Notes under the pieces: model-generated
The model's database searches: none
Told to the model about the DNA's origin: nothing
What the model saw: only the letters and a program-made list of their open reading frames with translations
Translations under genes and position numbers: made by a program
Shown here: one piece after another, positions 8,734-64,000 of the stretch
How positions within the stretch are numbered: position 1 is the stretch's first letter
Layout of the letters: each line of letters opens with the position of its first letter
NCBI GenBank assembly: GCA_041663665.1
Contig: JBAYMG010000001.1
Location: 1,482-65,481 of the forward strand
Direction of reading: 5' to 3'
DNA: 64,000 nt
DNA from: Candidatus Omnitrophota bacterium
GTDB taxonomy: Bacteria; Omnitrophota; Gorgyraeia; Gygaellales; Profunditerraquicolaceae

Positions 8734-8771
8734 TATACATATAAAGATATGTATGATAGTATTGACATTAT

Positions 8772-14688: not shown

Positions 14689-14690
14689 CT

Positions 14691-15437: not shown

Positions 15438-15446
15438 GGAGAATAA

Positions 15447-22663: not shown

Positions 22664-22667
22664 TACT

Positions 22668-23726: not shown

Positions 23727-23735
23727 GCTAATTTT

Positions 23736-28251: not shown

Positions 28252-28252
28252 A

Positions 28253-29985: not shown

Positions 29986-30843
29986 ATGACTAAAAATATA
30001 CGAATCATCCCTAGGCTTGATATTAAAGGGCCTAACCTTGTTAAAGGTATTCATTTAGAAGGATTACGTGTTCTTGGTAAACCGGAAGATTTTGCCAGGT
30101 TCTACTATGAAAATGGGGCCGATGAGCTTATTTATATGGACGTTGTTGCTAGTTTATATAATCGAAACAGCTTGCACGATATAATTAATAAAACCGCGCA
30201 GGAAATTTTTATTCCTTTGACAGTTGGGGGAGGGTTAAGAACCATAGAAGATATTCGTAGCGTTTTGCGGGCTGGTGCGGATAAGGTTTCTTTGAATACT
30301 GCGGCTATTAGAAATCCTAACTTTATTCATGAGGCATCGCGTATATTCGGCTCTTCCACAATTATTGTTACTATTGAAGCAATTAAGCAGCCTAACGGAG
30401 AATATTTTGCATATATTGATAATGGCAGGGAATATACGGGGATAGAAGTTTCTTTCTGGGCAAAACAGGTAGAGCAGTTAGGAGCTGGTGAAATATTGTT
30501 GACATCTGTAGATCGTGATGGAACAGGAGCAGGATACGATCTTGATCTGGTGAAAACCGTATCCGAATTAGTATCTATTCCCGTGATTGCCTCCGGCGGA
30601 CCAGGAAAAATTGAGGATATTAAACAAGTCGTAACCGAAGGCTATGCTGATGCTGTGGCAATCGCCTCTATGTTGCATTATGATGCTATCAAGTACTTAG
30701 AATCTAATTTAGATTCGTTTGTCGAAGGGAATGTCGAATTTCTTAAGAGCGGCCGTATTCTTACTAAATTTGAGCCTGTATCGCTACCGAGTATAAAAAA
30801 ATATCTTGTTAATCAAGGTGTTCAATGCCGTTTCGCTAATTGA
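29986..30843 (+). CDS. HisF-like cyclase subunit (WbuZ-type) for acetamidino-sugar synthesis
   Basis: (beta/alpha)8 HisF motifs ([18 protein letters not shown]) found in a glycan locus next to HisH-like and amidotransferase genes. Confidence 0.75.
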
Positions 30844-30847
30844 AATA

Positions 30848-31543
30848 ATGCTTATGTTTAATTTAGATGAGAATCAGGTAGCGATTATTGATTATGGCAT
30901 GGGTAATTTGTTTAATGTTCAACGAGCTTGTGCCAAGGTTGGATTACGCAGCGTTATTACCGCGGATAAGAATGTTATTATGCAATCAAACGGCGTAATT
31001 CTTCCCGGGGTAGGAGCATTCGGAGATGCCATTGCTAATCTAAAACGATTGGATTTGATTGGTTTAATAAGAGAGCAGATTAGCCGGAACATACCTTTTT
31101 TGGGGGTTTGTCTGGGAATGCAATTATTAATGACTGAAAGTGAAGAATTCGGCGGGCATAAAGGTTTTGATATTATCAGGGGCAGAGTTGTTAAGTTTAA
31201 TAACTCTGATCAGAGAAATCCAATGATTAAAGTTCCTCATGTTGGCTGGAATCGGATACTTTTTAAAAAAAATCAATCTATGAATTTAGGCGATTCTGTT
31301 TTGCAGGATATATCTAATGGTGAGTATATGTATTTCGTGCATTCCTATTATCCTGTACCTGAGGATGACGCGGTTACTGTTACGACGACCTGTTATGAAG
31401 GCATTGAATACTGTTCATCGTTATCTAGGGGGTCGGTTTTTGCTGTGCAGTTTCATCCTGAAAAAAGCGGATTAGAAGGTCTTAAGGTCTATGAGAATTG
31501 GGCAAATAAGGTGAATCAATATGAGGAGTTGAAACACAAATGA
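30848..31543 (+). CDS. HisH-like glutamine amidotransferase subunit (WbuY-type)
   Basis: Class I GATase with the GVCLGMQ catalytic Cys and a His-Glu pair (FHPEKS). Confidence 0.75.
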   Translation: MLMFNLDENQVAIIDYGMGNLFNVQRACAKVGLRSVITADKNVIMQSNGVILPGVGAFGDAIANLKRLDLIGLIREQISRNIPFLGVCLGMQLLMTESEEFGGHKGFDIIRGRVVKFNNSDQRNPMIKVPHVGWNRILFKKNQSMNLGDSVLQDISNGEYMYFVHSYYPVPEDDAVTVTTTCYEGIEYCSSLSRGSVFAVQFHPEKSGLEGLKVYENWANKVNQYEELKHK

Positions 31544-32760
31544 GCGAAAAATTAGAAGTTAAGTATGGATTGCCGGAAGAAGTCAGGTTTTGTAACCGTT
31601 GTGTTATGTCCAATCAAAGGCCTTCTTCTGCTGTAGAATTTAAACATACAATAAATAGCAAAAAAAATACGCTAAATATCGGAAAAGATGGTGTATGCGA
31701 TGCATGCATGCAGGCAGAAAAAAAAGAAAAAATTGATTGGAAAAAGAGGGAAGAGGAACTTGTTCAATTATTGGATAAACATCGGCGTAACGACGGTTAC
31801 TACGATTGCATTGTCCCTGGAAGCGGCGGTAAAGATAGCGCCTTTCAATCACACATTTTAAAATATAAATATGGGATGCATCCCCTGACAGTAACTTGGC
31901 CGCCAATCATTTATACGGATTATGGATATAAAAATTTTAGGAAATGGATTGAAGTTGGCGGGTTTGACAATTTAAGTTTTAATCAAAATGGGCGGGTTAT
32001 GAAGTTATTAACTCGTTTATCTATTGAAAATTTACTACATCCATTTCAAACGTTCATTTTAGGGCAAAAGAATCTGGGGCCGAAGGTTGCTTTGAAATAT
32101 GATATTCCTTTAATTTTTTACGGTGAAAATGAGGCAGAATACGGAAATCCGATTGCGGATAATGCGACATCGCTGCGTGATAAATCATATTATAGTATGA
32201 AGAATATTGATGAAATGTATCTGGGGGGTGTTTCTGTTAGGGAGCTAAGAGATAAGTATGATATTGATTTAATTGATTTAATGACATATTTGCCTGCGCC
32301 GCATGAACAGTTGGAGAAATCCAAGATTGAAGTACATTATCTTGGCTATTATTTAAAATGGACACCGCAGGAAGTTTATTATTATGCTGTTGAAAATACC
32401 GGTTTTGAAGCTAGGCCGTTTAGAACTCAGGGCACTTACAGTAAATATAATAGCATCGATGACAAAATTGACGATCTCCATTATTATACAACATTTATTA
32501 AGTTTGGTATTGGGCGGGCTACTTATGATGCTTCTCAAGAGATAAGAAATAAGCATCTGACGCGTGAGGAAGGTGTCGCTCTGGTAAAGAAATTTGACGG
32601 AGAGTTTCCGGATAAATATTTTAAAGAAATTATGGATTACATTAGCATCGATCCTAATTATTTTATAGAGCTTTGTGATAAGTTCCGGTCGCCGCATTTA
32701 TGGAAGGAAGAAAACGGTGAATGGAAATTAAGGCATGCAGTTTGGCATGATCAGATCTAA
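31540..32760 (+). CDS. N-acetyl sugar amidotransferase (LfnA/WbuX/PseA-type PP-loop ATP pyrophosphatase)
   Basis: PP-loop SGGKDS (VPGSGGKDSAF). The gene follows the hisH/hisF-like pair exactly as in acetamidino-sugar clusters. Confidence 0.7.
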   Translation: MSEKLEVKYGLPEEVRFCNRCVMSNQRPSSAVEFKHTINSKKNTLNIGKDGVCDACMQAEKKEKIDWKKREEELVQLLDKHRRNDGYYDCIVPGSGGKDSAFQSHILKYKYGMHPLTVTWPPIIYTDYGYKNFRKWIEVGGFDNLSFNQNGRVMKLLTRLSIENLLHPFQTFILGQKNLGPKVALKYDIPLIFYGENEAEYGNPIADNATSLRDKSYYSMKNIDEMYLGGVSVRELRDKYDIDLIDLMTYLPAPHEQLEKSKIEVHYLGYYLKWTPQEVYYYAVENTGFEARPFRTQGTYSKYNSIDDKIDDLHYYTTFIKFGIGRATYDASQEIRNKHLTREEGVALVKKFDGEFPDKYFKEIMDYISIDPNYFIELCDKFRSPHLWKEENGEWKLRHAVWHDQI

Positions 32761-33618: not shown

Positions 33619-33649
33619 CTAAGATTTTTTCCTATTGGAGGTTTATTTA

Positions 33650-34831
33650 ATGATTCCTTTGATGAAAAGCGCTTTTTTTAATGAACGGGATACAAAAAAA
33701 GCGTTATCAAAATTAATTTTAAAAGCAAAACGTTTAAGCATGGGGGAACAGGTTGAAGCTTTTGAGGAGGAATTCGCTTTGTTTCAAGGCGCAAAGAATG
33801 CAATCCTCGTGAACAGCGGAGGAAGTGCTAATCTTGCCATGCTCCAGGTGCTTAAAAATCTTGGCCGGCTGAAAGATGGGGATAAAATTGGTTTTTCTGC
33901 GTTAACTTGGTCTACAAATGTTATGCCTATTCTACAGCTTGGAATGCAACCAGTACCTGTTGATTGCGATAGAAATACTCTCAACGCCATGGCATATCAG
34001 CTTAAACACCGGCTTAATAAGACAGATCTTAAGGCGTTTTTTATTACCAATGCACTTGGTTTTTCCGGCGATCTTGATAAAATTCGTGAGATTTGTAATG
34101 AATCTAAGATTATTCTTATTGAAGATAATTGTGAGGCATTGGGAACGGAATTACCTTCCGGTAAAACCGGTAGTTTTGGGCTAATGTCGTCTTTTTCCTT
34201 ATTTGTCGCGCATCATATGTCCACTATTGAAGGTGGAATAATCTGTAGTAGTGACGGAGATATCGAAGAAATGCTTAAGATTGTTCGAGCTAATGGGTGG
34301 GATCGGAATTTAAAAAAATATCAACAACTTAAGTGGCGCAAAAAACATTGTATTGATTCCGAATTCGAGTCTAAGTATACTTTCTACGATCTTGGTTACA
34401 ATATACGGCCAACAGAAATAACAGGGTTTCTTGGACGTAATCAACTTAAATATCTAAAGCGGAATATAGTGATAAGGGAGAAAAATTATTTAACTTTGGA
34501 AGCCTGTGTGCAGGATAACGCTGATCTAATAAAACTCGACAGATCGCATATTTCACTGCTTTCAAGTTTTGCGTTCCCTGTTCTATGTAAGTCGCCTAAA
34601 CTGAAAAGCAGATATATGGACCGGTTTTTTAGGGCGGGAGTCGAGATCCGCCCTATGATCGCCGGCAACATCCAAAGGCAGCCTTTTTATAAAAAATATG
34701 TAGCAACTTTCTACGAACTTCCGGATACTGATTTCATCAATGAATGCGGATTCTACTGCGGTAATTATCCCGAATTAAGCAAGCCGGATATTAAAACCAT
34801 AATCGGCTGTCTTAGGGGGGATCGATCATGA
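33650..34831 (+). CDS. PMP-dependent nucleotide-sugar 3-dehydratase (ColD / E1-DdhC family)
   Basis: DegT fold in which the Schiff-base Lys is replaced by His (SFSLFVAHHMSTIEGG). LIEDNCEALG and RANGWDRNL match ColD-type dehydratases. Confidence 0.7.
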   Translation: MIPLMKSAFFNERDTKKALSKLILKAKRLSMGEQVEAFEEEFALFQGAKNAILVNSGGSANLAMLQVLKNLGRLKDGDKIGFSALTWSTNVMPILQLGMQPVPVDCDRNTLNAMAYQLKHRLNKTDLKAFFITNALGFSGDLDKIREICNESKIILIEDNCEALGTELPSGKTGSFGLMSSFSLFVAHHMSTIEGGIICSSDGDIEEMLKIVRANGWDRNLKKYQQLKWRKKHCIDSEFESKYTFYDLGYNIRPTEITGFLGRNQLKYLKRNIVIREKNYLTLEACVQDNADLIKLDRSHISLLSSFAFPVLCKSPKLKSRYMDRFFRAGVEIRPMIAGNIQRQPFYKKYVATFYELPDTDFINECGFYCGNYPELSKPDIKTIIGCLRGDRS

Positions 34832-35637
34832 TCATCGTTAGATTGATAGGGGGGCTCGGGAATCAACTGTTTCAGTATGCCGCCGCGCGGCAGTTATCTA
34901 AAATTCATCAAACAGGGCTAAAGATCGATATTTCGGGATTTAAAGAATATAAAAACCATAGATATTCGTTGACGCACTTTAGTATAATCGAAGATTATAT
35001 TTCTAAAGAAGAGACTTTCGGGATCGAAGAAATAAAGGCAAAATATTTTCATTTCGATCCTGAATTTAGGGAAATACCAGATAATATTATTTTAACTGGT
35101 TATTGGCAGACAGAAAAATATTTTATCGGAATATCGGAAATTATCAGAGATGAGTTTACTGTGAAGTATCCATTGAAGGATAAAGATCTTGAAATCTCCC
35201 GATTGATCAAAGATTCTAATTCTGTCAGTATGCACATCCGGCGCTGTGATTATCTCCCTGGCACGTTCAAAGATCAAATTTTCGATTGTTTAAGCCCGGA
35301 TTATTATATTAATGCGGTTAAACGCTTATCCGAAGAAGAGAGTAATTTAGTGTTTTTCATATTTAGCGACGATCCGGAATGGTCCAAAGACAATATTAAA
35401 TTAGAATATCCATGTATATTTGTAGAACATAATACAGCTGATACAAATTATGAAGATCTTCGTTTAATGAGCCTGTGTAAGCATAGTATCATCGCTAACA
35501 GTTCCTTCGGTTGGTGGGGAGCCTGGTTAAATAAAAACCAAAATAAAAAAGTTTATGCCCCGAAAAGATGGTTTAATTCTAATGTCAGGAATTTAGACCC
35601 AAAAGATATCATACCTTCTGCCTGGATTAAGATATGA
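34828..35637 (+). CDS. GT11-family alpha-1,2-fucosyl(-like) transferase
   Basis: N-terminal MIIVRLIGGLGNQLFQYAAA is the GT11 signature. Confidence 0.7.
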   Translation: MIIVRLIGGLGNQLFQYAAARQLSKIHQTGLKIDISGFKEYKNHRYSLTHFSIIEDYISKEETFGIEEIKAKYFHFDPEFREIPDNIILTGYWQTEKYFIGISEIIRDEFTVKYPLKDKDLEISRLIKDSNSVSMHIRRCDYLPGTFKDQIFDCLSPDYYINAVKRLSEEESNLVFFIFSDDPEWSKDNIKLEYPCIFVEHNTADTNYEDLRLMSLCKHSIIANSSFGWWGAWLNKNQNKKVYAPKRWFNSNVRNLDPKDIIPSAWIKI

Positions 35638-37631
35638 AAAAAAAGTATAAAGATAAAGAACCTCTAAAGAAAATCAAAATTCAGGCAGTGCAATTTAATA
35701 ATTCGTACGATAAGAATGTGTTTATTCCCTATAGTGTGGGTGTATTGCAGGCTTTCAGCCAGAAGTACCGGCGGATCAAGGAGCATTTTGAGTTTTTGCC
35801 GTATTTATACCGACGGGGAGCTGTTGAGGAACTTGCGAAAAAAGCCAGTGGTGCGGATATCCTGTGCGTTTCTTGCTATATGTGGAACTGGAAATTGAAT
35901 ATGGCTTTACTCGCACGGGTCCGCCGGCTCAATGAACGCTGCCTTATTATTGTCGGTGGCCCCCAGGTCCCGGACGAAGCGGAGAACTTGTTTAAAGAAC
36001 ACTCGGAGATAGATATTGCTATTCATGGTGAGGGTGAGGAAACATTTCATGAGATCCTCAATACGTATCTTCAGAGGGGGGATTTTCGCGGAGTCAAGGG
36101 GATGTCTTACCATGACCGTCGAACCGGGGAGTTCTTTTATGGAGGAATGCGGCCGGAGATAGCTCGGCTTGATGATATTCCGTCTCCGTATCTAACGGGA
36201 GTTTTTGACCGGTTGATGGCCGATGACAAAGCCGATTGGGTTGCTTCCTGGGAAACCAACAGAGGGTGCCCTTTCTCCTGCACGTACTGTTATTGGGGGC
36301 GGCGCTCGCAGACATTACGCAATTTCAGTATGGACCGGTTGTTTGCGGAGATTGAATGGTTTGGTCAGAACGATATCCCTTTGATCTTTGGCTGTGATGC
36401 CAATTTTGGGATATCGAAACGGGATTTGGACCTGGTGAAACGGCTGGCCGGGACCAAGAAAAAACACGGTTATCCGCAAACCTTCAGGGTTTGCAATATG
36501 AAAAACAGCAATGATGTTGTTTTTGACGTCGAAAAAGTACTGCACGAATCCTGTATGTCTAAAGGGACATCGATAAGTTTCCAGAGTCTTTCTCCGAAAG
36601 TCCTGCATAATGTAAAACGTAAGAATATCCGTATAGATTTATTTCATACACTGCAGAAACGTTATATGAAAGCGGGAATGCCGACCTATACGGAAATAAT
36701 CATTGCCTTACCGGGCGAGACTTATGAGACATTCGTTAACGGCATCAATACCTTGCTGGAGAATGGCCAGCATAGCCAACTTCATCTTTATAATTGCACG
36801 ATTCTTGTGAATTCCGAAATGGGACAGGAAAGTTATTTGAAGAAATACGGGATAAAAACAGTCGAAGGCCCTATCTTTCAACAGCATGTGACGCCGGATA
36901 CATCCGTGGATCGCGTAACTGAGTATGAGAAAATCGTTGTGACCACTGATGCCATGTCTTTAGCTGACTGGCGACGAACTTATGAATTTGCCTGGGCCGT
37001 ACTCTGTTTTCATTGTTTGGGCATATTTCAGATGATTTCGGTTCTCATTTATGGGCGATATAGGATTTCTTACCGCGTGTTTTATGAATCATTAGTCATT
37101 TTTGCAAAAAGTAACCCGAAGAGCCTTATTGGCCGGGAACTCATCGCGCTTAACGATATCCTGGACAATGTTCTTAAGGGGATAGGTTTTGATCAATTCC
37201 TGCCGGAGTTCGGCGAAGTGAACTGGCCTTCTGAGGAGGCCACCTTTTTACGATTATCTAATGGTATTGATTTGTTATACGGGGAATGCAGGCAGTTTCT
37301 TAAATCTTTTTTTAAGGCGCAGCATATAAAACCGGATTTAGATATTCTTAACGATCTTTTAAAATATCAAAGGCAGCGGCTAGTGCATTATGACGACGAT
37401 TATAACTCTGATCATGTCTTTGTGCTTAATTTCAATATCGTAGAATACATTAATGCCGTTATGCAAGGAGAGTCCTGCTCTCTACGCCGCGGGAAAAAAT
37501 GGTATCGCATCGTACGTGATCAGAATTTTAATGGCGATAAAAAGCGATTCGCTCGGGAAGCCGTTTGGTATGGTCGCAAAGGCGGGAAATTTTTGTATGC
37601 GGTTTATTCCATTGCGAAACCGGTAAAATAA
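35634..37631 (+). CDS. cobalamin-binding radical SAM enzyme (class B-like), 665 aa, with an uncharacterised ~300-aa C-terminal extension
   Basis: N-terminal B12-binding-like Rossmann region followed by CxxxCxxC (RGCPFSCTYCYWG). It sits in a GC-richer block. Confidence 0.7.
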   Translation: MKKKYKDKEPLKKIKIQAVQFNNSYDKNVFIPYSVGVLQAFSQKYRRIKEHFEFLPYLYRRGAVEELAKKASGADILCVSCYMWNWKLNMALLARVRRLNERCLIIVGGPQVPDEAENLFKEHSEIDIAIHGEGEETFHEILNTYLQRGDFRGVKGMSYHDRRTGEFFYGGMRPEIARLDDIPSPYLTGVFDRLMADDKADWVASWETNRGCPFSCTYCYWGRRSQTLRNFSMDRLFAEIEWFGQNDIPLIFGCDANFGISKRDLDLVKRLAGTKKKHGYPQTFRVCNMKNSNDVVFDVEKVLHESCMSKGTSISFQSLSPKVLHNVKRKNIRIDLFHTLQKRYMKAGMPTYTEIIIALPGETYETFVNGINTLLENGQHSQLHLYNCTILVNSEMGQESYLKKYGIKTVEGPIFQQHVTPDTSVDRVTEYEKIVVTTDAMSLADWRRTYEFAWAVLCFHCLGIFQMISVLIYGRYRISYRVFYESLVIFAKSNPKSLIGRELIALNDILDNVLKGIGFDQFLPEFGEVNWPSEEATFLRLSNGIDLLYGECRQFLKSFFKAQHIKPDLDILNDLLKYQRQRLVHYDDDYNSDHVFVLNFNIVEYINAVMQGESCSLRRGKKWYRIVRDQNFNGDKKRFAREAVWYGRKGGKFLYAVYSIAKPVK

Positions 37632-50492: not shown

Positions 50493-51932
50493 ATGAAGAT
50501 ATTGATGTTGAATCCCCCATTTCTTCCTAAATTTTCGCGATTTTCCAGGAGCCCGGCAGTCACTAAAAGCGGAACAATTTATTATCCGATATGGCATGCC
50601 TATGCTACGGGTGTCTTGGAAAAGGAAGGGCATGAGGTGCGGTTAGTTGATGCTCCGGCAGAGAGGTTATCTAGAGAACAGTGTTATCAAATTGCCAAAG
50701 AATTTCAGCCCAAACTGGTTGTTATCTACACATCTACGCCAAGTATATATAATGATATTGAGATAGCCGGCCAGATTAAAGATTTATTAAAAGACAGCTT
50801 TATTGTTTTAACAGGCCCCCATGTTTCAGCTTTACCTGAAGAGTCTCTGAAAATAGATAAGAGGATAGACGCCATAGCGCGGCGTGAATACGATCAGACA
50901 TTAGTTGAATTAGCCGGAAAACTGGAAGCTAGGCAAAGTCTGATTGACCTTCGGGGGCTTACTTTACGGCTTGACCAAGAGATAAAATCAAATCCGGACA
51001 GAGAGTTGATTAATGATTTAGATTCTATTCCGTTTGTATCAGATGTTTATAAACGGCATTTAAAAATTGAAAACTATTTTTATGCTCACTGTAAGTATCC
51101 GGTAGTTTCTATATTTACTAGCCGGGGCTGCAATGCTCAATGTGATTACTGTGTTTATCCGCAGCAAATGTTTGGCAGACAGCAAAGACAAAGAATGCCT
51201 GAAAATATAGTTGCTGAATTTGAATATATTGAAAAAGAATTGCCTCAGATTAAAGAGGTGCTTATTGATGATGATACGTTTTCATTTAATCAAGAATATA
51301 TTATAAAATTTTGCCAGCTTATGCTACAAAAGAAAATTAAGCTTTCTTGGATTGTTGAGTGCCGTGCTAATTTAGGATATAAAACGATGGTGATGATGAA
51401 AAAAGCAGGGTGCCGGTTAATTGTTACCGGTTTTGAAAGCGCTGATAACCAAGTATTAAAGAATATTAAAAAAGGTCTGACGTTCGAAAGAATGAGGCAG
51501 TTTGTTCAGGATGCAAAGAAGGCGAAAATAGCTATTCATGCTTGTTTTATGGCTGGTAATAAGGGTGAAACAAAGGAAACATTGAAGAAATCTTTAAAAT
51601 TTGCCAAAGAAATTAATGCGGATACTTGTCAGTTTTTTCCCCTAATGGTTTATCCCGGTACGGAAGCTTATGATTGGGCAAAGACTAATAATTATTTAAC
51701 AACTGAAGATTTCAGGAATTGGTTAACTAGCGAGGGATTACATAATTGTGTAGTGAGCACTCCTGAGTTAAGTGCTAAAGAATTAGTCGATTTTTGCGAT
51801 CACGCAAGGAAGAATTATTATTTAAGCCTGAAATATATGGTGCATAAGTTTAAACAAGTATTATTTGTTCCGGGAGAATTTAAGAAAACTTTTAAATCTG
51901 CGAAAATATTTTTAAAATATTTGTTTCGTTAG
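50493..51932 (+). CDS. cobalamin-binding radical SAM enzyme (class B-like), 479 aa
   Basis: N-terminal B12-binding-like domain followed by the CxxxCxxC cluster motif (SRGCNAQCDYCVYP). Confidence 0.7.
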   Translation: MKILMLNPPFLPKFSRFSRSPAVTKSGTIYYPIWHAYATGVLEKEGHEVRLVDAPAERLSREQCYQIAKEFQPKLVVIYTSTPSIYNDIEIAGQIKDLLKDSFIVLTGPHVSALPEESLKIDKRIDAIARREYDQTLVELAGKLEARQSLIDLRGLTLRLDQEIKSNPDRELINDLDSIPFVSDVYKRHLKIENYFYAHCKYPVVSIFTSRGCNAQCDYCVYPQQMFGRQQRQRMPENIVAEFEYIEKELPQIKEVLIDDDTFSFNQEYIIKFCQLMLQKKIKLSWIVECRANLGYKTMVMMKKAGCRLIVTGFESADNQVLKNIKKGLTFERMRQFVQDAKKAKIAIHACFMAGNKGETKETLKKSLKFAKEINADTCQFFPLMVYPGTEAYDWAKTNNYLTTEDFRNWLTSEGLHNCVVSTPELSAKELVDFCDHARKNYYLSLKYMVHKFKQVLFVPGEFKKTFKSAKIFLKYLFR

Positions 51933-55937: not shown

Positions 55938-57195
55938 AGATAAGATTTTTTTATATCTAGATTGGGCAATAATCGCTTCTTTGTGTATTTTGTTTTTTTG
56001 CCTGCCATTTGCAAAGGCCGGAGCCGAAAGTTTTACTCTGCTTGCCTTTTTCTTATGGATAATAAAGAAGATATTAGGGTACCGCGTCGAGGCACTATGG
56101 GGGATGTTGCCTAGAACTGAATTAAACAAAGTTTTGGCGATATTTATCGCAGCTAACGCGTTATCAGTGATTTTTAGTTCTCATCTGGGTTTATCTTTGC
56201 GGGCATTTTTCGGTAAAGAATTGAAATTTCTAGCTATATATTTTATGTTGGTTGAAGTTATTAATAGTAAGAAACGCCTTAAAGTTGTTTTAATTACAGT
56301 TATTGTTTCTGCGCTATTGTTAGTTCTTGATGCCGGTGTGCAGTATTCTAGAGGATTAGATTTTTTAAGAGGTTTCCCGTTAAACCGGCTTACTGCTTCT
56401 TTTCAAACCGCGAACGGTTTTGCTGGTTGGTTAATTGTAGTTATTTTATTGTTTTTAGGCCTGTTAATTTCAGATAAAATTATAGGTAAGGGATTAAAGG
56501 TTCTATTATTAATGTTAATCCCGTTGTTAGGGGGTTGCTTATTAGGAACTTACGCGCGTGGTGCCTGGTTGGGTTTTGCAATCGGAGTTTTTTTCATAGT
56601 TGTATACGCTTTTAAAGGTTTTTCATTCAAAATTAAGTTATTATGCGTATCTATTAGTGTGTTTTTTTTAGCTACCTGTTTAATTTTTCCGCAGGCTTTG
56701 TTGTCTAGGGTTAAGGCTCTTGGCCGGATTAATTTTAAATCCAGCGAAACAGTTAATGCACGAGTAAAATCAACATTAAAAATTGATGCAGGCTCAACCC
56801 CGATTAGATTAAAGCTCTGGAAGGAAGCTTTGAGGATAACCAGGGATTATCCTCTCTTTGGCTGTGGATTAAATACTTATTCTAAAATTGGGCCAAAGTA
56901 CAAAAGTTTTGATTGGGGAGGAGTGTATCCGCATAATTCTTATTTGCAGATGTCAGCGGAAATTGGTTTAATCGGTTTATTTGCTTTTCTTTGGGTTTTG
57001 TTTAGTTTTTTTAAGGTAGGGCTGCGGCATTTTAACCAGAAAAAAGATTATCTGGCTTTGGGGCTTTTAGCCGGTATTTTAGCATTTTTAGTACATGCTT
57101 TTTTTGACACACATCTTTATTCTTTACAATTAGTAGTTTTATTTTGGTATATGCTTGGATTGACGGTTGCAGTGATTAAGCTAAATCTTGAATAA
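55927..57195 (+). CDS. O-antigen ligase family (Wzy_C domain) membrane protein
   Basis: 422 aa and polytopic, with a large periplasmic loop before the last TM helices, which is typical of WaaL or Wzy_C proteins. Confidence 0.5.
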   Translation: MLNKDKIFLYLDWAIIASLCILFFCLPFAKAGAESFTLLAFFLWIIKKILGYRVEALWGMLPRTELNKVLAIFIAANALSVIFSSHLGLSLRAFFGKELKFLAIYFMLVEVINSKKRLKVVLITVIVSALLLVLDAGVQYSRGLDFLRGFPLNRLTASFQTANGFAGWLIVVILLFLGLLISDKIIGKGLKVLLLMLIPLLGGCLLGTYARGAWLGFAIGVFFIVVYAFKGFSFKIKLLCVSISVFFLATCLIFPQALLSRVKALGRINFKSSETVNARVKSTLKIDAGSTPIRLKLWKEALRITRDYPLFGCGLNTYSKIGPKYKSFDWGGVYPHNSYLQMSAEIGLIGLFAFLWVLFSFFKVGLRHFNQKKDYLALGLLAGILAFLVHAFFDTHLYSLQLVVLFWYMLGLTVAVIKLNLE

Positions 57196-57226
57196 AGAGA
57201 TTATCTATGGTTTAAAAAAAAGTATT

Positions 57227-57955
57227 ATGAAAAAAATAAAACCGAATCATTTGCTTGAAGCAGTAGTTAATATTTTTGCCAATCTTCCAAGAGGTAAGGT
57301 ATTAGATTTAGGTTGTGGTGATGGAGATTATGCCAAGAGATTAAAAGATCTGGGTTTTGATGTTATTGCAGGCGATATCGATTTAGATAGGTTTAAATAT
57401 AGAAATGATATCGAATTTAAGCTTTGCGACATAACCAGGGAAATGCCGTTTGTTGCTAATTATTTTGATTATGTTTTATTAATGGAGGTCGTAGAGCATT
57501 TAAGAAATCCGTATATAGTTATTCCTGAGATTAATAGGATTATTAAGAATAACGGCTCCTTGGTTTTATCAACTCCTAATATATTAAATCTTAAATCAAG
57601 GTTTCGTTTTCTCTTTGAAGGTGCTTATGAGTATTTTAGAGAGCCGCCGTTAGATCAAGCGAAAAACAAAAAAGAAGTTATTTTTAATTTACATCTTGTC
57701 CCATATAGATATCAGGAATTAGAGTATTTATTGTCGGTGAGCGGATTTAAGGTTTATAAAATTTTTACTAGTATCTATGAATGGTTTGGTTTAGGGTTTG
57801 TTCTTCCAATTATTTTTTTCCAAGCCTGGATAAAAGAAAAGCGAGCAATAAAAAAAGGCGGTATAGATTATAAAAGAATAAATAAAAATTTATTATCCAA
57901 GGAGTTGCTTTTTGGCAGGCATTTAATTGTGCAGTCCAAGAAATATTCGGTTTAA
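57227..57955 (+). CDS. class I SAM-dependent methyltransferase
   Basis: VLDLGCGDGDYAKRL and DVIAGDID motifs. I chose the ATG at 57227; the tracker's TTG start at 57188 overlaps the preceding stop. Confidence 0.55.
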   Translation: MKKIKPNHLLEAVVNIFANLPRGKVLDLGCGDGDYAKRLKDLGFDVIAGDIDLDRFKYRNDIEFKLCDITREMPFVANYFDYVLLMEVVEHLRNPYIVIPEINRIIKNNGSLVLSTPNILNLKSRFRFLFEGAYEYFREPPLDQAKNKKEVIFNLHLVPYRYQELEYLLSVSGFKVYKIFTSIYEWFGLGFVLPIIFFQAWIKEKRAIKKGGIDYKRINKNLLSKELLFGRHLIVQSKKYSV

Positions 57956-57972
57956 AATTATCGGAGGCACTA

Positions 57973-58749
57973 ATGAAAGTTGTAATTTTAGCAGGCGGCA
58001 GGGGCACGCGGATTAGCGAGGAAACAGAGGTTTTACCAAAACCGATGGTTGAAATCGGCGGCAAGCCGATGCTTTGGCATATTATGAAGATATATTCCAG
58101 TTATGGATTTAATGAATTCATAATTTGCCTAGGCTATAAAGGTTACCTGGTAAAAGAATATTTTTCCCATTATCTTATGCATATGAGCGATATTACGATC
58201 GATTTATCTAAGAATAAAACTGAGATTCATTCTACTGTTTCTGAGCCTTGGAAGATAACTTTAGTAGACACGGGGTTAGATTCTATGACCGGCGGAAGGT
58301 TAAGAAGAGTTCAAAAATATATCGGCAATGAACCGTTTTTGCTTACCTATGGCGATGGTTTGTCGGATGTGAATATAGGCAAACTGGTTGATTTTCATAA
58401 AGAAAGTAATAATTTAGCTACTTTAACTGCAATACAGAATGCCGGAAGATTTGGCGTATTAGACCTGGATTCGAAAGCTAAAGTTACTTCGTTTCTTGAG
58501 AAGCCAAAAGATGAAAGCGGGTGGATTAACGGTGGATTTTTTGTTTTAGAGCCTAAGGTTTTTGATTTTATTCCTAATAGCGATTCTGTTGTTTGGGAGA
58601 GAGAGCCATTGGAAAATCTAGCTAAGCAGGGCAAGCTAAACGCTTTTAAACACAATGGTTCTTGGAGCTGCATGGATACTTTAAGAGATAAAATTGAATT
58701 GGAGCGGACTTGGCAATCCGGCCAGGCTTTCTGGAAAGTTTGGGAATGA
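57973..58749 (+). CDS. rfbF: glucose-1-phosphate cytidylyltransferase
   Basis: MKVVILAGGRGTRISEETEVLPKPMVEIGGKPMLWHIMKIYS is canonical RfbF/DdhA. GGAGG ribosome-binding site. Confidence 0.85.
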   Translation: MKVVILAGGRGTRISEETEVLPKPMVEIGGKPMLWHIMKIYSSYGFNEFIICLGYKGYLVKEYFSHYLMHMSDITIDLSKNKTEIHSTVSEPWKITLVDTGLDSMTGGRLRRVQKYIGNEPFLLTYGDGLSDVNIGKLVDFHKESNNLATLTAIQNAGRFGVLDLDSKAKVTSFLEKPKDESGWINGGFFVLEPKVFDFIPNSDSVVWEREPLENLAKQGKLNAFKHNGSWSCMDTLRDKIELERTWQSGQAFWKVWE

Positions 58750-59738
58750 TAACTATCAATAAAGAGTTTTGGAAGAATAAAAAGGTTCTGATAACTGGTT
58801 TTGAGGGTTTCTTGGGTTCGCATTTGACCAAAGTGATACTTAAGACCGGCGCTAAAGTTGTCGGTTTGGATATTAAAACCTGCCGTAAACAAACCATTTT
58901 TACTCCCCAAGATTATAAGAAAATAACTATTTTTAAAGGGAGCGTTGCAAATCGTAAGTTTGTTCGCGGTATCTTAGCTAAGCAGCCAATTAATATAATT
59001 TTTCATTTGGCTGCTGAAGCTATAGTCAGCCGGAGCCAAGAGAATCCTCTTGAGGCGTTTGAATCTAATATCTCCGGGACTTGGGAAGTTCTAGAAGCTG
59101 CGCGATTGAATAAAAATATTCTGGCGGTGATCGTTGCTTCAAGTGATAAAGCTTATGGCAGCCATAAAGTGCTTCCTTACCATGAAGATGCTCCGTTAAT
59201 TGCAAACCATCCTTATGATGTCTCTAAAAGCTGCGCGGATTTAATCGCTAAAACATATGCTCATACTTACGGTTTGCCGGTGGCAGTTACCCGCTGTGGT
59301 AACATTTATGGCCCGGGAGATTTTAATTTTAGCCGGTTAATACCTGATGCATTAAGATGTGTAGCTTTAAATAAAAAATTAGAGATACGCAGCGATGGGA
59401 AGTTTGTGCGTGATTATGTATATGTAGATGATATTGTCTCCGGTTATATTCAAATAGCCCAGGAGTTTAAACGGCGCAAGCTTTCCGGGGAAGCTTTTAA
59501 CCTAAGTGATGAGAAGCCGATAACCGTAATTAAATTGTTAAATGAACTTGAGAAATGTGCTTTTGGAGTAAAAAAATTAAATTATCAAATTATGAATACG
59601 GCTAAATATGAAATAAAGAAACAATATCTTGCCTCATCTAAGGCCAGAAAAATTTTGGGCTGGAAGCCTGAGTGCAGCTTAGAAGAAGGCCTTAAAAATA
59701 CAAGCAGATGGTACGCACAATATTTTAAACAAATATGA
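58746..59738 (+). CDS. rfbG: CDP-glucose 4,6-dehydratase
   Basis: VLITGFEGFLGSHL, SSDKAYG, YDVSKSCADLI, RCGNIYGPGD and RLIPDALR all match RfbG/DdhB. Confidence 0.8.
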   Translation: MITINKEFWKNKKVLITGFEGFLGSHLTKVILKTGAKVVGLDIKTCRKQTIFTPQDYKKITIFKGSVANRKFVRGILAKQPINIIFHLAAEAIVSRSQENPLEAFESNISGTWEVLEAARLNKNILAVIVASSDKAYGSHKVLPYHEDAPLIANHPYDVSKSCADLIAKTYAHTYGLPVAVTRCGNIYGPGDFNFSRLIPDALRCVALNKKLEIRSDGKFVRDYVYVDDIVSGYIQIAQEFKRRKLSGEAFNLSDEKPITVIKLLNELEKCAFGVKKLNYQIMNTAKYEIKKQYLASSKARKILGWKPECSLEEGLKNTSRWYAQYFKQI

Positions 59739-60475
59739 AGCTGCATTTTTTAGGGACTAACGGTTGGTATGACACGCAACTGGGTAATACGCTTTCAGTT
59801 TTATTGGATACGGATCAGGCTTATATTGTTTTTGATGCCGGCACCGGATTTTACAAGCTGGATCAGTATGTAAAAGGGAATAAGCCGATAATAGTTTTAC
59901 TCAGCCATTTTCATTTAGACCATATTATTGGCTTACATGCTCTGGCTAAATTTAATTTTGCTCAAGGAATTAAGGTTTTTGGGCCGCCGGGAATAAAGAA
60001 ATTATTTAGCCAGATTATTAACAGCCCTTATTCTATGCCGCTTAATCAGCTTAAGACTAAAGTTACGGTAAAAGAATTTTCGAATAATTTAAAACTGCCT
60101 GTAGATATTCAATATCGGAAGTTACGCCATGTTGGAGTTTGTTATGGATATAAAGTAACAGCGGATAATAAATCAATAGTTTTTTGTACAGATACCGGGC
60201 CATGTAGTAATTTTAACCGGCTAGCTAAAGGCGCGGATATTTTAATAACTGAGTCTTCTTTACCTGCGGGGAAAATAAATAACAAATGGCCGCATCTTAA
60301 TCCGGAACAAGCGGCCAGGTTAGCTAAAATTGCAAAAGTTAAGAAATTATTCCTGGCTCATTTTGATGCCAGTATTTATTTTGATATGGGGGATAGGATG
60401 GATGCGGCAATGGTTGCTCGAGAAATATTTAGAAATACATTGGTAGCAGTTGACGGATTAACTATAAATTTATAA
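59735..60475 (+). CDS. metallo-beta-lactamase-fold hydrolase
   Basis: HxHxDH metal-binding motif (SHFHLDHIIG) in a 246-aa protein. Confidence 0.6.
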   Translation: MKLHFLGTNGWYDTQLGNTLSVLLDTDQAYIVFDAGTGFYKLDQYVKGNKPIIVLLSHFHLDHIIGLHALAKFNFAQGIKVFGPPGIKKLFSQIINSPYSMPLNQLKTKVTVKEFSNNLKLPVDIQYRKLRHVGVCYGYKVTADNKSIVFCTDTGPCSNFNRLAKGADILITESSLPAGKINNKWPHLNPEQAARLAKIAKVKKLFLAHFDASIYFDMGDRMDAAMVAREIFRNTLVAVDGLTINL

Positions 60476-60476
60476 A

Positions 60477-61364
60477 ATGCGGAAAGTAAAAGTAGGCATA
60501 ATTGGAACCGGAAATATCGGTACAGATCTTTTAATTAAAATACAAAGATCGAAGTTTTTAGAATGTGGTATTTTTGTTGGAAGAAATGCTGATTCTGAAG
60601 GGATAAGAAGGGCTGAATTAATGGGGATTAATACTTCTTGTGAATCTATTGAAGCCATTTCAAAAAATCCAGGCTTGTGTGAAATTGTTTTTGATGCTAC
60701 TTCTGCAAGTGTGCATTTAAAAAATGCCCCGATTTTGAAGAAATTGAAAAAATACACTATTGATTTAACTCCTTCAAGGATTGGGAAAATGTGCGTGCCG
60801 GCGATTAATATGAAAGAATGCCTTGATGTTAGCAATATTAATTTAGTCACCTGCGGAGGACAGGCGGCAATTCCAATTATGGTTGCGATTATGAAAGTTC
60901 ACCCGGATACTGAATATATTGAGCTAGTATCTAGCATTGCTTCAAAATCAGCAGGTTCTGGAACAAGATTGAATATTGATGAGTTTACGCAGACAACTAT
61001 AGACGCGATAGAGAGTTTTACGAAAGTTAAAAAGGCAAAAGCAATTATTATTCTTAATCCTGCTGAACCTCCGGTATTAATGCACAATACTATTTATGCA
61101 AATATTAAAAAACCGAATCTAGCGAGATTAAAAAGGGAAGTTAATAAAACTGCGAATGTGATTAAAAAATATGTTCCGGGATATAAAATTACTCTGGGGC
61201 CTGTATTTGAGAATGATAGAGTGACAACTATGATCGAAGTTATTGGCTTGGGTGATTATCTGCCCAAGTATTCAGGAAATCTTGATATTATTACTTGCGC
61301 TGCTGTTAATATGGCCGAGGAATACGCTAAGCGGAAACTATTATCAAAAACTATGAATAATTAG
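60477..61364 (+). CDS. acetylating acetaldehyde dehydrogenase (DmpF/MhpF type)
   Basis: VGIIGTGNIGTDLLIKI, FDATSASVH, VTCGGQAAIP, SKSAGSGTRLNIDEFT and AIIILNPAEPP closely match DmpF. Confidence 0.85.
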   Translation: MRKVKVGIIGTGNIGTDLLIKIQRSKFLECGIFVGRNADSEGIRRAELMGINTSCESIEAISKNPGLCEIVFDATSASVHLKNAPILKKLKKYTIDLTPSRIGKMCVPAINMKECLDVSNINLVTCGGQAAIPIMVAIMKVHPDTEYIELVSSIASKSAGSGTRLNIDEFTQTTIDAIESFTKVKKAKAIIILNPAEPPVLMHNTIYANIKKPNLARLKREVNKTANVIKKYVPGYKITLGPVFENDRVTTMIEVIGLGDYLPKYSGNLDIITCAAVNMAEEYAKRKLLSKTMNN

Positions 61365-61370
61365 AATACT

Positions 61371-62414
61371 ATGAGTGAAATAATATTTTTTGATTCAACT
61401 TTACGCGATGGTTCCCATGCAATAGGCCATCAATTAAGCGCTGGCAATATTAAAGAATATTGCAGGCAAATAGATGATGCCGGTTTGTATACTACTATTG
61501 TTGGCCATGGCAATGGACTGGGAGCCTCATCGCTGCAGGTTGGGCTTTCAGCCATAACTGATAAGGATATGCTTAAATGTGCTCGCAAAGAACTTAAAAA
61601 AACTAAATTAGGCGTATTTTTAATTCCGGGTTTTGGGACTATAAATGATGATATTAATCCGGCTATAGATGTTGGAGTTGATTTATTTTGCGTAGCTACC
61701 CATTGCACAGAAGCAGATGTTACAAGACAGCATATAGAATATTTGAGAAAGAAAAATAAAGAAACTTATGGCGTATTAATGATGTATCATATGACGTCAA
61801 AAGAAAAACTAGTTGAAGAAGCTTTAAAAATGCAAAGCTATGGCGCGCAGGGCGTAATTATTATGGATTCTGCGGGCGCTTCAACTCCAGAAATGGTTTC
61901 TGACACAGTTTCGTATCTTTCCCAAAATATTGAAATCAAGCTTGGATTTCATGCCCATAATAATCTTGGTCTTGCTGTAGCAAATTCATTAATTGCTATC
62001 CAAAACGGAGTTTTAATTATAGATGGGACTTTACGCGGATTTGGTGCGGGAGCGGGGAATTGTCAATTAGAGGTATTGATTGGGCTTTTGTTAAAGATAG
62101 GGATTTCTACTAATCTTGATCTCTATAGAATGATGGATGTAAGCGATAATATTGTTGCAAAAATAATGAAAAAACCGCAGGAAATTTCTTCAATTTCTTT
62201 AATAAGCGGTATTGCCGGAGTATTCTCAGGATTTGCTAATCACGTAAAACAAGCAGCAGAGAGATTTAAGGTTGATCCAAGGGACATTTTTATGGAATTG
62301 GGTAAGCGTAAGATGGTTGCCGGACAAGAGGATTTTATTGTTGATGTAGCGATGTATTTGGCCAGCAAAAAAGGCTCAGAGAAAGAAAGTTATGATATTG
62401 AATCTTTGCTCTAG
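61371..62414 (+). CDS. 4-hydroxy-2-oxovalerate aldolase-type class II pyruvate aldolase (DmpG/MhpE type)
   Basis: DSTLRDGSHAIGHQ, CVATHCTEADVTRQHIEYLR, FHAHNNLGLAVANS, GAGAGNCQLE and RKMVAGQEDFIVDVA closely match DmpG. Confidence 0.85.
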   Translation: MSEIIFFDSTLRDGSHAIGHQLSAGNIKEYCRQIDDAGLYTTIVGHGNGLGASSLQVGLSAITDKDMLKCARKELKKTKLGVFLIPGFGTINDDINPAIDVGVDLFCVATHCTEADVTRQHIEYLRKKNKETYGVLMMYHMTSKEKLVEEALKMQSYGAQGVIIMDSAGASTPEMVSDTVSYLSQNIEIKLGFHAHNNLGLAVANSLIAIQNGVLIIDGTLRGFGAGAGNCQLEVLIGLLLKIGISTNLDLYRMMDVSDNIVAKIMKKPQEISSISLISGIAGVFSGFANHVKQAAERFKVDPRDIFMELGKRKMVAGQEDFIVDVAMYLASKKGSEKESYDIESLL

Positions 62415-62431
62415 CTTTACGGAGGTATTTT

Positions 62432-64000
62432 ATGAGAGTTGCTGATTTCATTTTTAAGTTTTTATCTGATAGGGGAGTTGAGACTATATATATGGTTTCT
62501 GGCGGGCAAGCGATGTTTTTGGTTGATGCCGTTTATCAAAACAAAAAGCTTAAGGCAATATGCACACATCATGAGCAGTCAGCTGGGATGTCTGCAGATG
62601 CATACGGTAGATTAACCGGTAAGTTAGGTGTTGCTTTGGTTACTGCTGGTCCAGGTGCAGTAAATATTACTAATGGCGTAGTTGGGGGCTGGACTGATTC
62701 TGCCCCAATGATGGTTATCTCAGGACAATCTAGTTTGTCCTGTGTCCGGTATCAGCAGGAACATCCTATTCGACAATTTGGTATTCAAGGTATTAACATT
62801 AAGCCGTTAGTGGAAGACGTAACTAAATATTTTGTTACAATAGATGATCCGGCAAAGATTCTTTTCTATATGAGCAAAGCTTATTATTTAGCTTTAAATG
62901 GCAGGCCTGGGCCAGTATGGATTGATGTTCCTCTTGATGTGCAAAAAATGGAGGTTCCTGCCGGATTGTTAGAAGAATACCAGCCTCCTCTAGAAAAAAC
63001 AAATAATGATATTTTAAATAAAGAAGTTGAGGAACTATTGGTAATGCTCTCTAAGGCGAAACGGCCAGTTATATTAGCTGGGCAAGGAGTAAGGTTATCC
63101 CATGCACTTAATGATTTTTTAAACGTTGTTGACAGATTAAAAATCCCTGTTTTAACATCAAGGTTGGGTATTGATTTAATAAACAGTGATAACCAACTGT
63201 ATGTTGGCCGGCCAGGTAATTATGGGGAAAGAGCAGCAAATTTTGCAATTCAAAATTCAGATTTGATTATCTCGATGGGCTGCCGGCTGGCTTCAGCGTT
63301 AGTTGGACATGATGCTAAAAATTTTGGAAAATATGCGAAAAAAGTAGTTGTGGATATTGATAAGGAAGAGCTGGAAAAACCGGGGTTTAAAATAGATTTA
63401 AAAATTAATTTTGATCTAAAAAGAGTTTTGCTTGAAATTCTTAAAACGTTAGATAAAGAAAATATTTTAAAATATAAGAATTGGGTTGATCAGTGTAATC
63501 ATTGGAAATTAACTTATCCGGTAGTTTTGGATAGCTATAAACATGAGAAACCCGTAAATTCGTATTATTTTACGGATAAACTTTCTGATTATGCCACTAA
63601 AGATGATGTGGTTATTGTGGATACCGGCACTTGTTTTCATGTTGCTTGTCAGACTTGGAAGATAAAAAAAGGCCAGAGATTTCTTACTACTGGCGGGTTG
63701 TCTTCTATGGGGTACTGGGCAGCTTCCATAGGTGGTTGCATAGCTAATAATCGGAAAAGAACAGTGGTTATCACAGGAGATGGAAGCCTGCAAATGAATA
63801 TTCAGGAGCTGGCTGTGATCAAGCATAATAACTTACCAATTAAAATTGTTATTTTTAATAATAATGGCTATTTGCTTATTCGCCATACCCAGAAGAATTT
63901 TATGGCAGGCAGGTTGTTGGGGGAAGGGCCGGATACAGGAGTATGGTGTCCGGATTCACTGAAAGTTGCTCAGGCATATGGAATAAAGGGGGTAAGGATT
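62432..64000 (+). CDS. thiamine-diphosphate enzyme of the acetolactate-synthase/YerE type (partial; runs off the 3' edge)
   Basis: It was absent from the ORF track because no stop codon falls in the window. My own translation is open from the ATG at 62432, which follows a GGAGG ribosome-binding site. It carries the Pyr domain (GVETIYMVSGGQAMFL), a central domain and the ThDP-binding GDGSLQMNIQEL...NN motif. Confidence 0.75.
   Translation, partial: MRVADFIFKFLSDRGVETIYMVSGGQAMFLVDAVYQNKKLKAICTHHEQSAGMSADAYGRLTGKLGVALVTAGPGAVNITNGVVGGWTDSAPMMVISGQSSLSCVRYQQEHPIRQFGIQGINIKPLVEDVTKYFVTIDDPAKILFYMSKAYYLALNGRPGPVWIDVPLDVQKMEVPAGLLEEYQPPLEKTNNDILNKEVEELLVMLSKAKRPVILAGQGVRLSHALNDFLNVVDRLKIPVLTSRLGIDLINSDNQLYVGRPGNYGERAANFAIQNSDLIISMGCRLASALVGHDAKNFGKYAKKVVVDIDKEELEKPGFKIDLKINFDLKRVLLEILKTLDKENILKYKNWVDQCNHWKLTYPVVLDSYKHEKPVNSYYFTDKLSDYATKDDVVIVDTGTCFHVACQTWKIKKGQRFLTTGGLSSMGYWAASIGGCIANNRKRTVVITGDGSLQMNIQELAVIKHNNLPIKIVIFNNNGYLLIRHTQKNFMAGRLLGEGPDTGVWCPDSLKVAQAYGIKGVRI

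Follow-up and report, generated by a model that had tools for sequence, protein, structure and literature searches.

The gene cluster described here, a closely packed operon at positions 57973-64000 of a 64-kb window (the whole stretch of DNA analyzed, 64,000 nucleotides of contig JBAYMG010000001.1 from a Candidatus Omnitrophota bacterium), is best introduced through the branched-sugar systems that it resembles. In Pectobacterium atrosepticum SCRI1043, the genes for ErwE and ErwF adjoin those for the BphI-like ErwI and the BphJ-like ErwJ (accessions WP_011093010 to WP_011093013), as well as genes for cytidine diphosphate (CDP)-4-keto-3,6-dideoxy-D-glucose (Steitz et al. 2022, PMC9306805). In the route deduced there, ErwJ makes acetaldehyde from acetyl-coenzyme A (acetyl-CoA), ErwI condenses the acetaldehyde with pyruvate, the thiamine diphosphate (ThDP)-dependent ErwE transfers the C4 unit left after decarboxylation to CDP-4-keto-3,6-dideoxyglucose, and reduction by ErwF then yields erwiniose; ErwE takes 4-hydroxy-2-oxopentanoate and related gamma-hydroxy keto acids and rejects pyruvate (PMC9306805). 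The yersiniose A pathway of Yersinia pseudotuberculosis (DdhA-D, YerE and YerF) starts from CDP-glucose and runs through a cytidylyltransferase, a 4,6-dehydratase, E1, a ThDP-dependent branching at C4 and a reduction, features that are proposed for the Omnitrophota operon as well. YerE uses pyruvate, gives a two-carbon branch and works without an aldolase or dehydrogenase, whereas here the aldolase-dehydrogenase pair is invariant; the yersiniose A pathway also includes E3 (DdhD), which is absent here. JanthE of Janthinobacterium sp. HH01 (PDB IDs: 8rph, 8rpi and 8rpj) is a YerE-like carboligase that accepts 4-hydroxy-2-oxovalerate among other donors, and pyruvate as well as longer ones (PMC12188165). 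More than 200 YerE-like clusters were counted in an in-silico genome-mining study of 2024, as cited in a 2025 review (PMC12247030).

In gene content the Omnitrophota operon is like the erwiniose cluster: genes for a BphJ-like dehydrogenase, a BphI-like aldolase, a YerE-like ThDP enzyme and a candidate NAD(P)H reductase lie beside genes that would make CDP-4-keto-3,6-dideoxyglucose. The likeness is one of genes, and by analogy we consider it likely that the operon serves the synthesis of a 3,6-dideoxyhexose, activated by CDP and carrying at C4 a four-carbon branch of acyl origin, by a mechanism whose reaction directions, donor, acceptor and product are carried over from ErwE, ErwI, ErwJ and ErwF. 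DdhA would make CDP-glucose, the 4,6-dehydratase would convert it to CDP-4-keto-6-deoxyglucose, and RfbH/E1 would take off the 3-hydroxyl to give CDP-4-keto-3,6-dideoxyglucose. The DmpF-like enzyme, working in reverse, would form acetaldehyde from acetyl-CoA and NADH and hand it to the DmpG-like aldolase, which would join it to pyruvate and so give 4-hydroxy-2-oxopentanoate, probably as the 4R enantiomer. The ThDP enzyme would then decarboxylate this acid and add the C4 acyl anion equivalent to the C4 ketone of the sugar, the downstream short-chain dehydrogenase/reductase (SDR) would reduce the branch ketone, and a family 2 glycosyltransferase (GT2) would hand the sugar on. We propose that the product is of the erwiniose type, a 3,6,8-trideoxy-4-C-(1-hydroxyethyl)-octose or a stereoisomer, made for a cell-surface glycan of Omnitrophota.

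A first-pass annotation of the window had placed a CDP-hexose route to a C-branched sugar around a YerE-like ThDP enzyme fed by the DmpFG-like pair. The route is supported by the RfbH gene downstream and by JanthE as the best solved relative, and the feeding role by the conserved synteny described below (67/67 loci) and, by analogy, by the Erw precedent. Its belief that such a pair had not been described in a glycan operon is contradicted by the published erwiniose cluster (Steitz et al. 2022, PMC9306805), and its two-carbon unit gives way, on the analogy with the pyruvate-rejecting ErwE, to the C5 acid 4-hydroxy-2-oxopentanoate as probable donor of a C4 branch. No support was found for its other suggestion, a 2-keto-3-deoxy acid sugar built by the aldolase itself. 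The logic of the pathway has been published before, and what is new here is an example in uncultivated Omnitrophota, which differs from the erwiniose cluster in its host, in the lack of an E3 gene and in an extra gene for a metallo-beta-lactamase (MBL)-fold protein.

Gene identities and catalytic residues, like the operon structure and the conserved synteny, were obtained directly. The operon comprises six closely packed open reading frames (ORFs) within the window, all on the + strand. They encode the glucose-1-phosphate cytidylyltransferase DdhA, whose product is CDP-D-glucose (57973-58749; TIGR02623, PF00483); a DdhB-like nucleoside diphosphate (NDP)-hexose 4,6-dehydratase of the CDP type (58746-59738, with an alternative TTG start at 58710; best model TIGR02622, and active-site motif); the MBL-fold metallohydrolase, an accessory gene (59735-60475; PF12706/PF00753); an acylating acetaldehyde dehydrogenase of the DmpF/BphJ/ErwJ type (60477-61364; TIGR03215); a class II pyruvate aldolase of the DmpG/BphI/ErwI type (61371-62414; TIGR03217, DmpG_comm); and a YerE/ErwE-like ThDP carboligase (62432-64000; three TPP_enzyme domains) of 597 aa, which the window end cuts after residue 523, with about 225 nt remaining beyond. 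The junctions are, in order, two 4-nt overlaps, the first between the ddhA stop and the dehydratase ATG, and gaps of 1, 6 and 17 nt. The first-pass annotation had read six genes with operon-like spacing in this region, which these overlaps and gaps confirm; its description of them as fused is right for the adjacency of the genes and wrong for the proteins, which are not fused.

Genes past the window end were read on an identical contig (L001, part of a 114-kb ENA contig), found by looking up exact matches to the aldolase (adding 51370 to an L001 coordinate gives that of the window). After the ThDP gene come an extended SDR of 349 aa (L001 12855-13904), whose start overlaps the ThDP stop codon, a 437-aa DegT-family protein identified as RfbH/E1 (L001 13897-15210; NF011936) and a GT2 (L001 15207-15914), so that from ddhA through GT2 every junction is an overlap or a gap of at most 17 nt. 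A polysaccharide deacetylase, a Wzy-like protein and more glycosyltransferases come after GT2. On the other side, 17 nt upstream of ddhA, lies a class I S-adenosylmethionine (SAM) methyltransferase gene (57188-57955, + strand; Methyltransf_11/23), a possible tailoring enzyme whose membership of the operon is uncertain. It has no conserved homolog in the related loci, being a singleton in ORF clustering; in other related loci an FkbM-type methyltransferase follows the SDR2-type reductase.

A consensus scan found no enrichment of promoter-like matches (41 versus 46 expected) or of terminator-like matches (6 versus 9.4 expected), and the terminator-like matches listed and the strongest promoter-like ones lie within coding sequence. 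Neither the window nor the following 10 kb contains a meta-cleavage gene (dioxygenase, hydrolase/dehydrogenase, hydratase or decarboxylase), and neither ilvN nor ilvC lies downstream of the ThDP gene, the SDR, RfbH and GT2 genes being there instead. These results bear on two possibilities that the first-pass annotation had set against its own reading, that the DmpFG-like genes open an unrelated catabolic operon, or that the ThDP enzyme is an ordinary ilvB product with ilvN or ilvC beside it. With both, in the form of a meta-cleavage type operon and an ordinary ilvB, the juxtaposition with the CDP-hexose genes would be accidental. Both the aldolase and the dehydrogenase do pass the equivalog cutoffs of catabolically defined families, and the best NCBIfam model for the ThDP enzyme is acetohydroxyacid synthase (AHAS). 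Yet no intergenic space, promoter, terminator or meta-cleavage gene divides the pair from the sugar genes, the 371 bits that the full-length ThDP enzyme reaches with the AHAS model TIGR00118 are far under the cutoff of 538, the synteny with sugar genes is kept over more than ten phyla, and the aldolase lacks the catabolic Tyr/Leu pair. We regard an accidental meeting of unrelated genes as extremely improbable, and an ordinary ilvB identity is ruled out by the AHAS score together with the lack of ilvN/ilvC neighbors.

The ThDP enzyme contains three TPP_enzyme domains and a GDG...NN ThDP motif. Its closest solved relative is JanthE (PDB ID: 8rph; 410 bits, E value 1.6e-121, 36% identity), to which it aligns end to end, including the C-terminal tail; the canonical GDG of the window enzyme is CDG in JanthE. 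The next PDB matches are 5ahk with 241 bits, which we take to be a Pseudomonas protegens YerE entry and whose alignment stops at query residue 563, and plant AHAS with about 238 bits. With IlvB the enzyme shares the three-domain ThDP fold, and AHAS remains the best NCBIfam model, whereas the sub-cutoff score, the lack of ilvN and ilvC and the position in a glycan operon set it apart.

To place the operon among its relatives, the ThDP enzyme was aligned with 14 homologs, and one genome per GTDB species was scanned with this alignment. Of the 171 relatives found, the 80 best (58-82% identity) were retained, and the locus counts below refer to these. The window proteins served as tblastn queries against their neighborhoods; 67 loci offer at least 2 kb of sequence ahead of the ThDP gene, and 42 at least 6 kb on both sides. 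The dehydrogenase-aldolase pair lies on the same strand as the ThDP gene in 67/67 loci from more than ten phyla, always with the dehydrogenase immediately upstream of the aldolase. In 66/67 loci the pair directly abuts the ThDP gene, with a median gap of 20 nt, an SDR being inserted in the exception. The neighbors of the cassette across the 80 loci are sugar genes: in the 42 well-covered loci ddhA is present in 32, a 4,6-dehydratase-like SDR in 40 and RfbH in 35, GtrA-like and GtrB-like genes are frequent in the related loci, and, by ORF clustering and Pfam scans, an extended SDR gene almost always follows that of the ThDP enzyme.

Carriers include Omnitrophota, Elusimicrobiota, Firestonebacteria and Goldiibacteriota, many Clostridia (among them Clostridium gasigenes DSM 12272 and Lachnotalea glycerini DSM 28816), about 19 Patescibacteria/Candidate Phyla Radiation (CPR) genomes, gammaproteobacterial and deltaproteobacterial metagenome-assembled genomes, Phycisphaerae, Lentisphaerae, Verrucomicrobiota, Gastranaerophilales, Fibrobacter and Spirochaetia. 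Because the dehydrogenase-aldolase-ThDP order recurs in every one of the 67 loci and in many phyla, the adjacency of these genes is not chance. Given this conserved synteny, and with no meta-cleavage gene in the window or the next 10 kb, the pair is far more likely to supply substrate for biosynthesis than to serve catabolism or scavenging. To our knowledge, neither CPR/Patescibacteria nor Omnitrophota are known for aromatic catabolism.

The pair itself combines the hallmarks of the catabolic complexes DmpFG, BphIJ, MhpEF and HsaFG with several departures from them. The dehydrogenase passes TIGR03215 (384 bits, cutoff 282), is 49% identical to DmpF (1nvm_B) and 50% to 7z3s, and has the catalytic Cys126 (DmpF Cys132), which is kept in 66/66 homologs; it lacks an insertion of about 20 residues found in DmpF and in this resembles the shorter 7z3s form. 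The aldolase passes TIGR03217 (392 bits, cutoff 286), includes the DmpG communication domain and is 41% identical to DmpG (1nvm_A), with Arg12, Asp13, His16, His194 and His196 corresponding to the conserved DmpG Arg17, Asp18, His21, His200 and His202. With the active-site residues of the aldolase, the catalytic Cys of the dehydrogenase and the communication domain in place, a channelling complex of the two proteins is likely. Their distance from catabolic enzymes (41% and 49% to DmpG and DmpF) is similar to that of ErwI and ErwJ, for which identities of 43% and 41% to BphI and BphJ were reported (PMC9306805). Unlike the catabolic complexes, the pair is proposed to run in the biosynthetic direction and has no catabolic neighborhood.

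A further departure concerns stereochemistry. BphI is strictly 4S-specific; the Y290F exchange abolishes its stereocontrol, a second exchange at Leu87 (L87W/Y290F or L87N/Y290F) makes it 4R-specific, and Leu89 sets the limit on aldehyde length (PMC3962088). In the four solved catabolic aldolases the residues at BphI positions 290 and 87 are Tyr and Leu. At the position of BphI Tyr290 (DmpG Tyr291) the window aldolase has Phe285, and Phe is found in 71/71 full-length cassette aldolases; at the Leu87 position it has Phe83, the 71 enzymes having Phe (44), Tyr (26) or His (1); and at the Leu89 position it has Ile85, with Ile in 66/71 and Leu in 5/71. Because Phe285 and Phe83 stand in place of the 4S determinants Tyr290 and Leu87, as in the engineered BphI variants, the cassette aldolases are probably naturally 4R-selective, and because the residue at the Leu89 position stays large, they probably take a short aldehyde. 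The predicted 4R outcome fits the (R)-4-hydroxy-2-oxopentanoate donor proposed for ErwE. No mention of the Phe/aromatic signature at 290/87 was met in the literature searched.

A HMMER search of 1.84 billion representatives separated three motif classes at the 290 site: a Phe class (G[VIL]FSGF), closest to the window enzyme; a Tyr class (AGVYSSF), which has Leu87 and is the catabolic type; and a His class (FHSSF), an uncharacterised group of proteins of about 330 or about 680 aa. These classes support the reading of the Phe-type aldolases as a clade of their own. The FHSSF group of the DmpG family is large, and many of its members are about 650-710 aa long, with a C-terminal half of no known identity (P0279-P0390).

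The invariance of the pair also speaks to a yersiniose-type alternative, in which the ThDP enzyme uses pyruvate as YerE does and adds a two-carbon branch (acetyl, then 1-hydroxyethyl), and the pair scavenges acetaldehyde from hydroxyethyl-ThDP or balances the pyruvate/acetyl-CoA pool. YerE chemistry is established and the acceptor would be identical, and JanthE, the closest solved relative, takes pyruvate besides longer donors. Against this, the presence of the pair with the ThDP gene in 67/67 loci at a median gap of 20 nt points to an obligatory supply and not to housekeeping, published YerE takes pyruvate directly and needs no aldolase, and ErwE, which has the same neighbors, rejects pyruvate (PMC9306805). 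The clade-wide change of the stereochemistry determinants implies, moreover, selection on the aldol product. A pyruvate-derived branch is for these reasons quite unlikely, and we favor the C4 branch from 4-hydroxy-2-oxopentanoate.

Of the genes for the sugar acceptor, ddhA matches its equivalog TIGR02623 with 407 bits (cutoff 300). The 4,6-dehydratase matches PDB entries 6bi4 (RmlB, 146 bits) and 1wvg (CDP-glucose dehydratase, 133 bits), and its active-site SSDKAYG has the Asp-Lys of 1wvg (TSDKCY), unlike the STDEVYG of RmlB 6bi4; a YDVSK motif is present as well. RfbH/E1 scores 713 bits against NF011936 (cutoff 423), has His in place of the pyridoxal phosphate (PLP) lysine (motif SFYPPHHITMGEGG), and shows the Cys pattern C191...C249-x-C251-x7-C259, which we take to match the C-X57-C-X-C-X7-C spacing that is presumably the E1 iron-sulfur motif. 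The family and position of the SDR after the ThDP gene fit the role of a branch-ketone reductase. The first-pass annotation had proposed a search past 64 kb for E3 or YerF-like reductases, and this yielded the extended SDR and RfbH immediately after the ThDP gene, and no E3.

Several points weigh against the pathway as proposed. The top NCBIfam model for the 4,6-dehydratase, the CDP-glucose 4,6-dehydratase model TIGR02622, gives 217 bits and the cutoff is 278; the ddhB (rfbG) assignment, first made in the first-pass annotation, is therefore upheld by the CDP-type Asp-Lys motif and the context rather than by the equivalog score. The closest characterised relative of the ThDP enzyme is only 36% identical. 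No Pectobacterium is among the best 80 of the 171 relatives, and the gene order corresponds to J-I-E-F here versus E-F-J-I in the erwiniose cluster, as judged by the order of the Erw accessions. The SDR after the ThDP gene is UXS-like and represents one of at least five subtypes at that position, so the final step may not be the same in all loci. An E3/DdhD reductase was found neither by Pfam annotation, which covered the entire window plus 10 kb downstream, nor by a crude ferredoxin-plus-FNR motif screen of 1191 ORFs from all related loci, in itself weak evidence. This leaves the reductant for the 3-deoxygenation unaccounted for: either E1 receives its electrons from a housekeeping ferredoxin or flavodoxin system of these anaerobes, or the acceptor is a different one. 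Lastly, no pathway step could be assigned to the MBL-fold protein from HMMs, a PDB sequence search, a structure model or Foldseek.

In another reading the cassette follows the same logic to another product, with a different 4-hydroxy-2-oxo acid (for example from propionyl-CoA/propanal, giving a C5 branch) or with the non-3-deoxygenated acceptor CDP-4-keto-6-deoxyglucose, in which case the sugar would be an undescribed relative of erwiniose and not erwiniose. No E3 gene lies nearby in any locus, the reductase subtype varies, with GNAT and aminotransferase genes instead in some loci, the ThDP enzyme is distant from any characterised enzyme, and BphI-type aldolases take propanal besides acetaldehyde (PMC3962088). 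However, an RfbH with E1 hallmarks in the operon and in 35/42 well-covered loci implies 3-deoxygenation, and the large residue kept at the Leu89 position favors a short aldehyde. We consider such a different product unlikely, and retain an erwiniose-type sugar as the proposed product. It is possible, if doubtful, that the cassette represents a separate, strictly conserved and very widespread long-branch sugar lineage and not a copy of the Pectobacterium system. Such a lineage would combine a ThDP enzyme of only 36% identity to a characterised one, a 4R aldolase as nature's equivalent of the engineered BphI L87W/Y290F variant, and 3-deoxygenation by E1 with no E3 of its own.

The MBL-fold protein matches PF12706/PF00753 and has an HFHLDH motif, all its NCBIfam scores lying far under their cutoffs. 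An AlphaFold model (predicted local distance difference test score 87) gave RNase Z (1y44), YhfI (6kns) and BA1088 (1zkp) as top Foldseek matches, with PhnP-type phosphodiesterases and the PhnP-family diphosphatase 6b9v lower; the predicted fold is that of an RNase Z/YhfI/PhnP-type phosphodiesterase, closest to the arm-less RNase Z/YhfI type. Roles as a hydroxy-keto acid lactonase or as a thioesterase were considered and are unsupported by the fold matches. The gene occurs in only 7/80 related loci; more distant homologs stand in the same block in L088 and L089, and in L086 a homolog follows ddhA-ddhB, with a split transketolase in place of the DmpFG and ThDP genes. It is an accessory gene that moves with the ddhA/ddhB CDP-hexose genes rather than with the aldolase pair.

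Variations on the cassette were also seen in the related loci. A GNAT acetyltransferase and a class I/II aminotransferase replace the SDR after the ThDP gene in L005, L018, L039, L042 and L045, where the branch ketone may accordingly be converted to an amino or acetamido derivative. The glycan loci L019, L020, L022, L025, L037, L051 and L075 each contain, besides the aldolase-linked copy, two or three ThDP paralogs with 33-44% identity to the window enzyme, and several different branched sugars may be made there in parallel. A split transketolase, consisting of a Transketolase_N protein and a Transket_pyr/Transketolase_C protein, lies beside the cassette in six mostly CPR loci (L030, L031, L032, L036, L049 and L081; for example L032 13761-14693 and L030 6771-7613), and in L086 (9858-11587) one replaces the cassette after ddhA-ddhB-MBL-DegT. 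Predicted sugar-branching split transketolases are all from Streptomyces according to a recent review (PMC12247030), and these cell-surface loci may be a further, undescribed source of sugar-branching transketolases.

Elsewhere in the window, two genes had been tentatively joined to the CDP branch in the first-pass annotation, a link that finds no support, as the CDP operon needs neither of them. The SDR gene at 12429-13478 follows rmlA, rmlD and rmlB, and no specific epimerase model matched it. The DegT-family protein at 33635-34831, called a 3-dehydratase, is indeed ColD-like, with His-His for the Lys (SFSLFVAHHMSTIEGG), no Cys (Fe-S) insert and 213 bits against the RfbH model (cutoff 423); it is not linked to the CDP operon, lying 24 kb away, and the operon has its own E1. 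This gene sits between a GT2 gene and a pair consisting of a GT11 fucosyltransferase-like gene and a gene for a 665-aa B12-binding radical SAM protein (33635-37631 in all, counting from the ColD-like gene). The radical SAM protein scores 272 bits, under the cutoff, against a KedN5-type C-methyltransferase family; a second B12-radical-SAM gene is at 50493-51932, and such genes recur in L006, L088 and L089. A TylCIII-type sugar C-methyltransferase gene (18281-19537; Methyltransf_13 and Methyltransf_14) is flanked by three SDR genes, and the same 64-kb locus may make a methyl-branched sugar too.

A complete-looking nonulosonic acid set occupies 21491-28969, comprising a DegT aminotransferase with the normal Lys, a CBS-NTP transferase, a PglD-like acetyltransferase, NeuB, a NeuC-like Epimerase_2 protein, a short-chain dehydrogenase, a GFO/IDH oxidoreductase and a cytidine monophosphate (CMP)-sugar synthetase, followed by an FkbM methyltransferase. 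Next come HisF-like and HisH-like genes and a gene for a 406-aa protein without a Pfam match (29986-32760), a trio that resembles what we take to be the amidotransferase trio making sugar acetamidino groups. An IS200-type Y1 transposase gene and a BrnT toxin gene (8005-9300) lie between housekeeping genes (ribosomal protein S1 and tyrosyl-tRNA synthetase) and the start of the glycan locus, which is interrupted by RhuM and Peptidase_C1 genes at 13697-16196. All likely real ORFs of at least 150 aa are on the + strand, and the GC skew is positive over the whole window. The GC content climbs from about 0.36-0.39 to 0.42-0.44 at 36-44 kb (a segment of radical SAM, GFO/IDH, SDR, Wzx and Glyphos_transf genes), which may be of different origin.

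If the cassette is indeed a separate and widespread long-branch lineage, branched dideoxy sugars with a C4 or longer branch would be common on the surfaces of uncultivated anaerobes, and their product variants (amino or acetamido branches, added transketolase steps) would be as yet undescribed. The widespread cassette raises the concrete question of an E1 working without E3. Phe at BphI position 290 with an aromatic residue at 87 offers a simple sequence marker for a likely 4R-selective natural pyruvate aldolase, and such aldolases, together with a large pool of ThDP carboligases that would form tertiary alcohols, are of interest for biocatalysis. The analysis leads us to expect an erwiniose-like branched sugar on the surfaces of Omnitrophota, CPR and many anaerobes of gut and sediment, organisms for which no glycan chemistry is known, and the cultured carriers Clostridium gasigenes DSM 12272 and Lachnotalea glycerini DSM 28816 are strains from which that sugar might be isolated.

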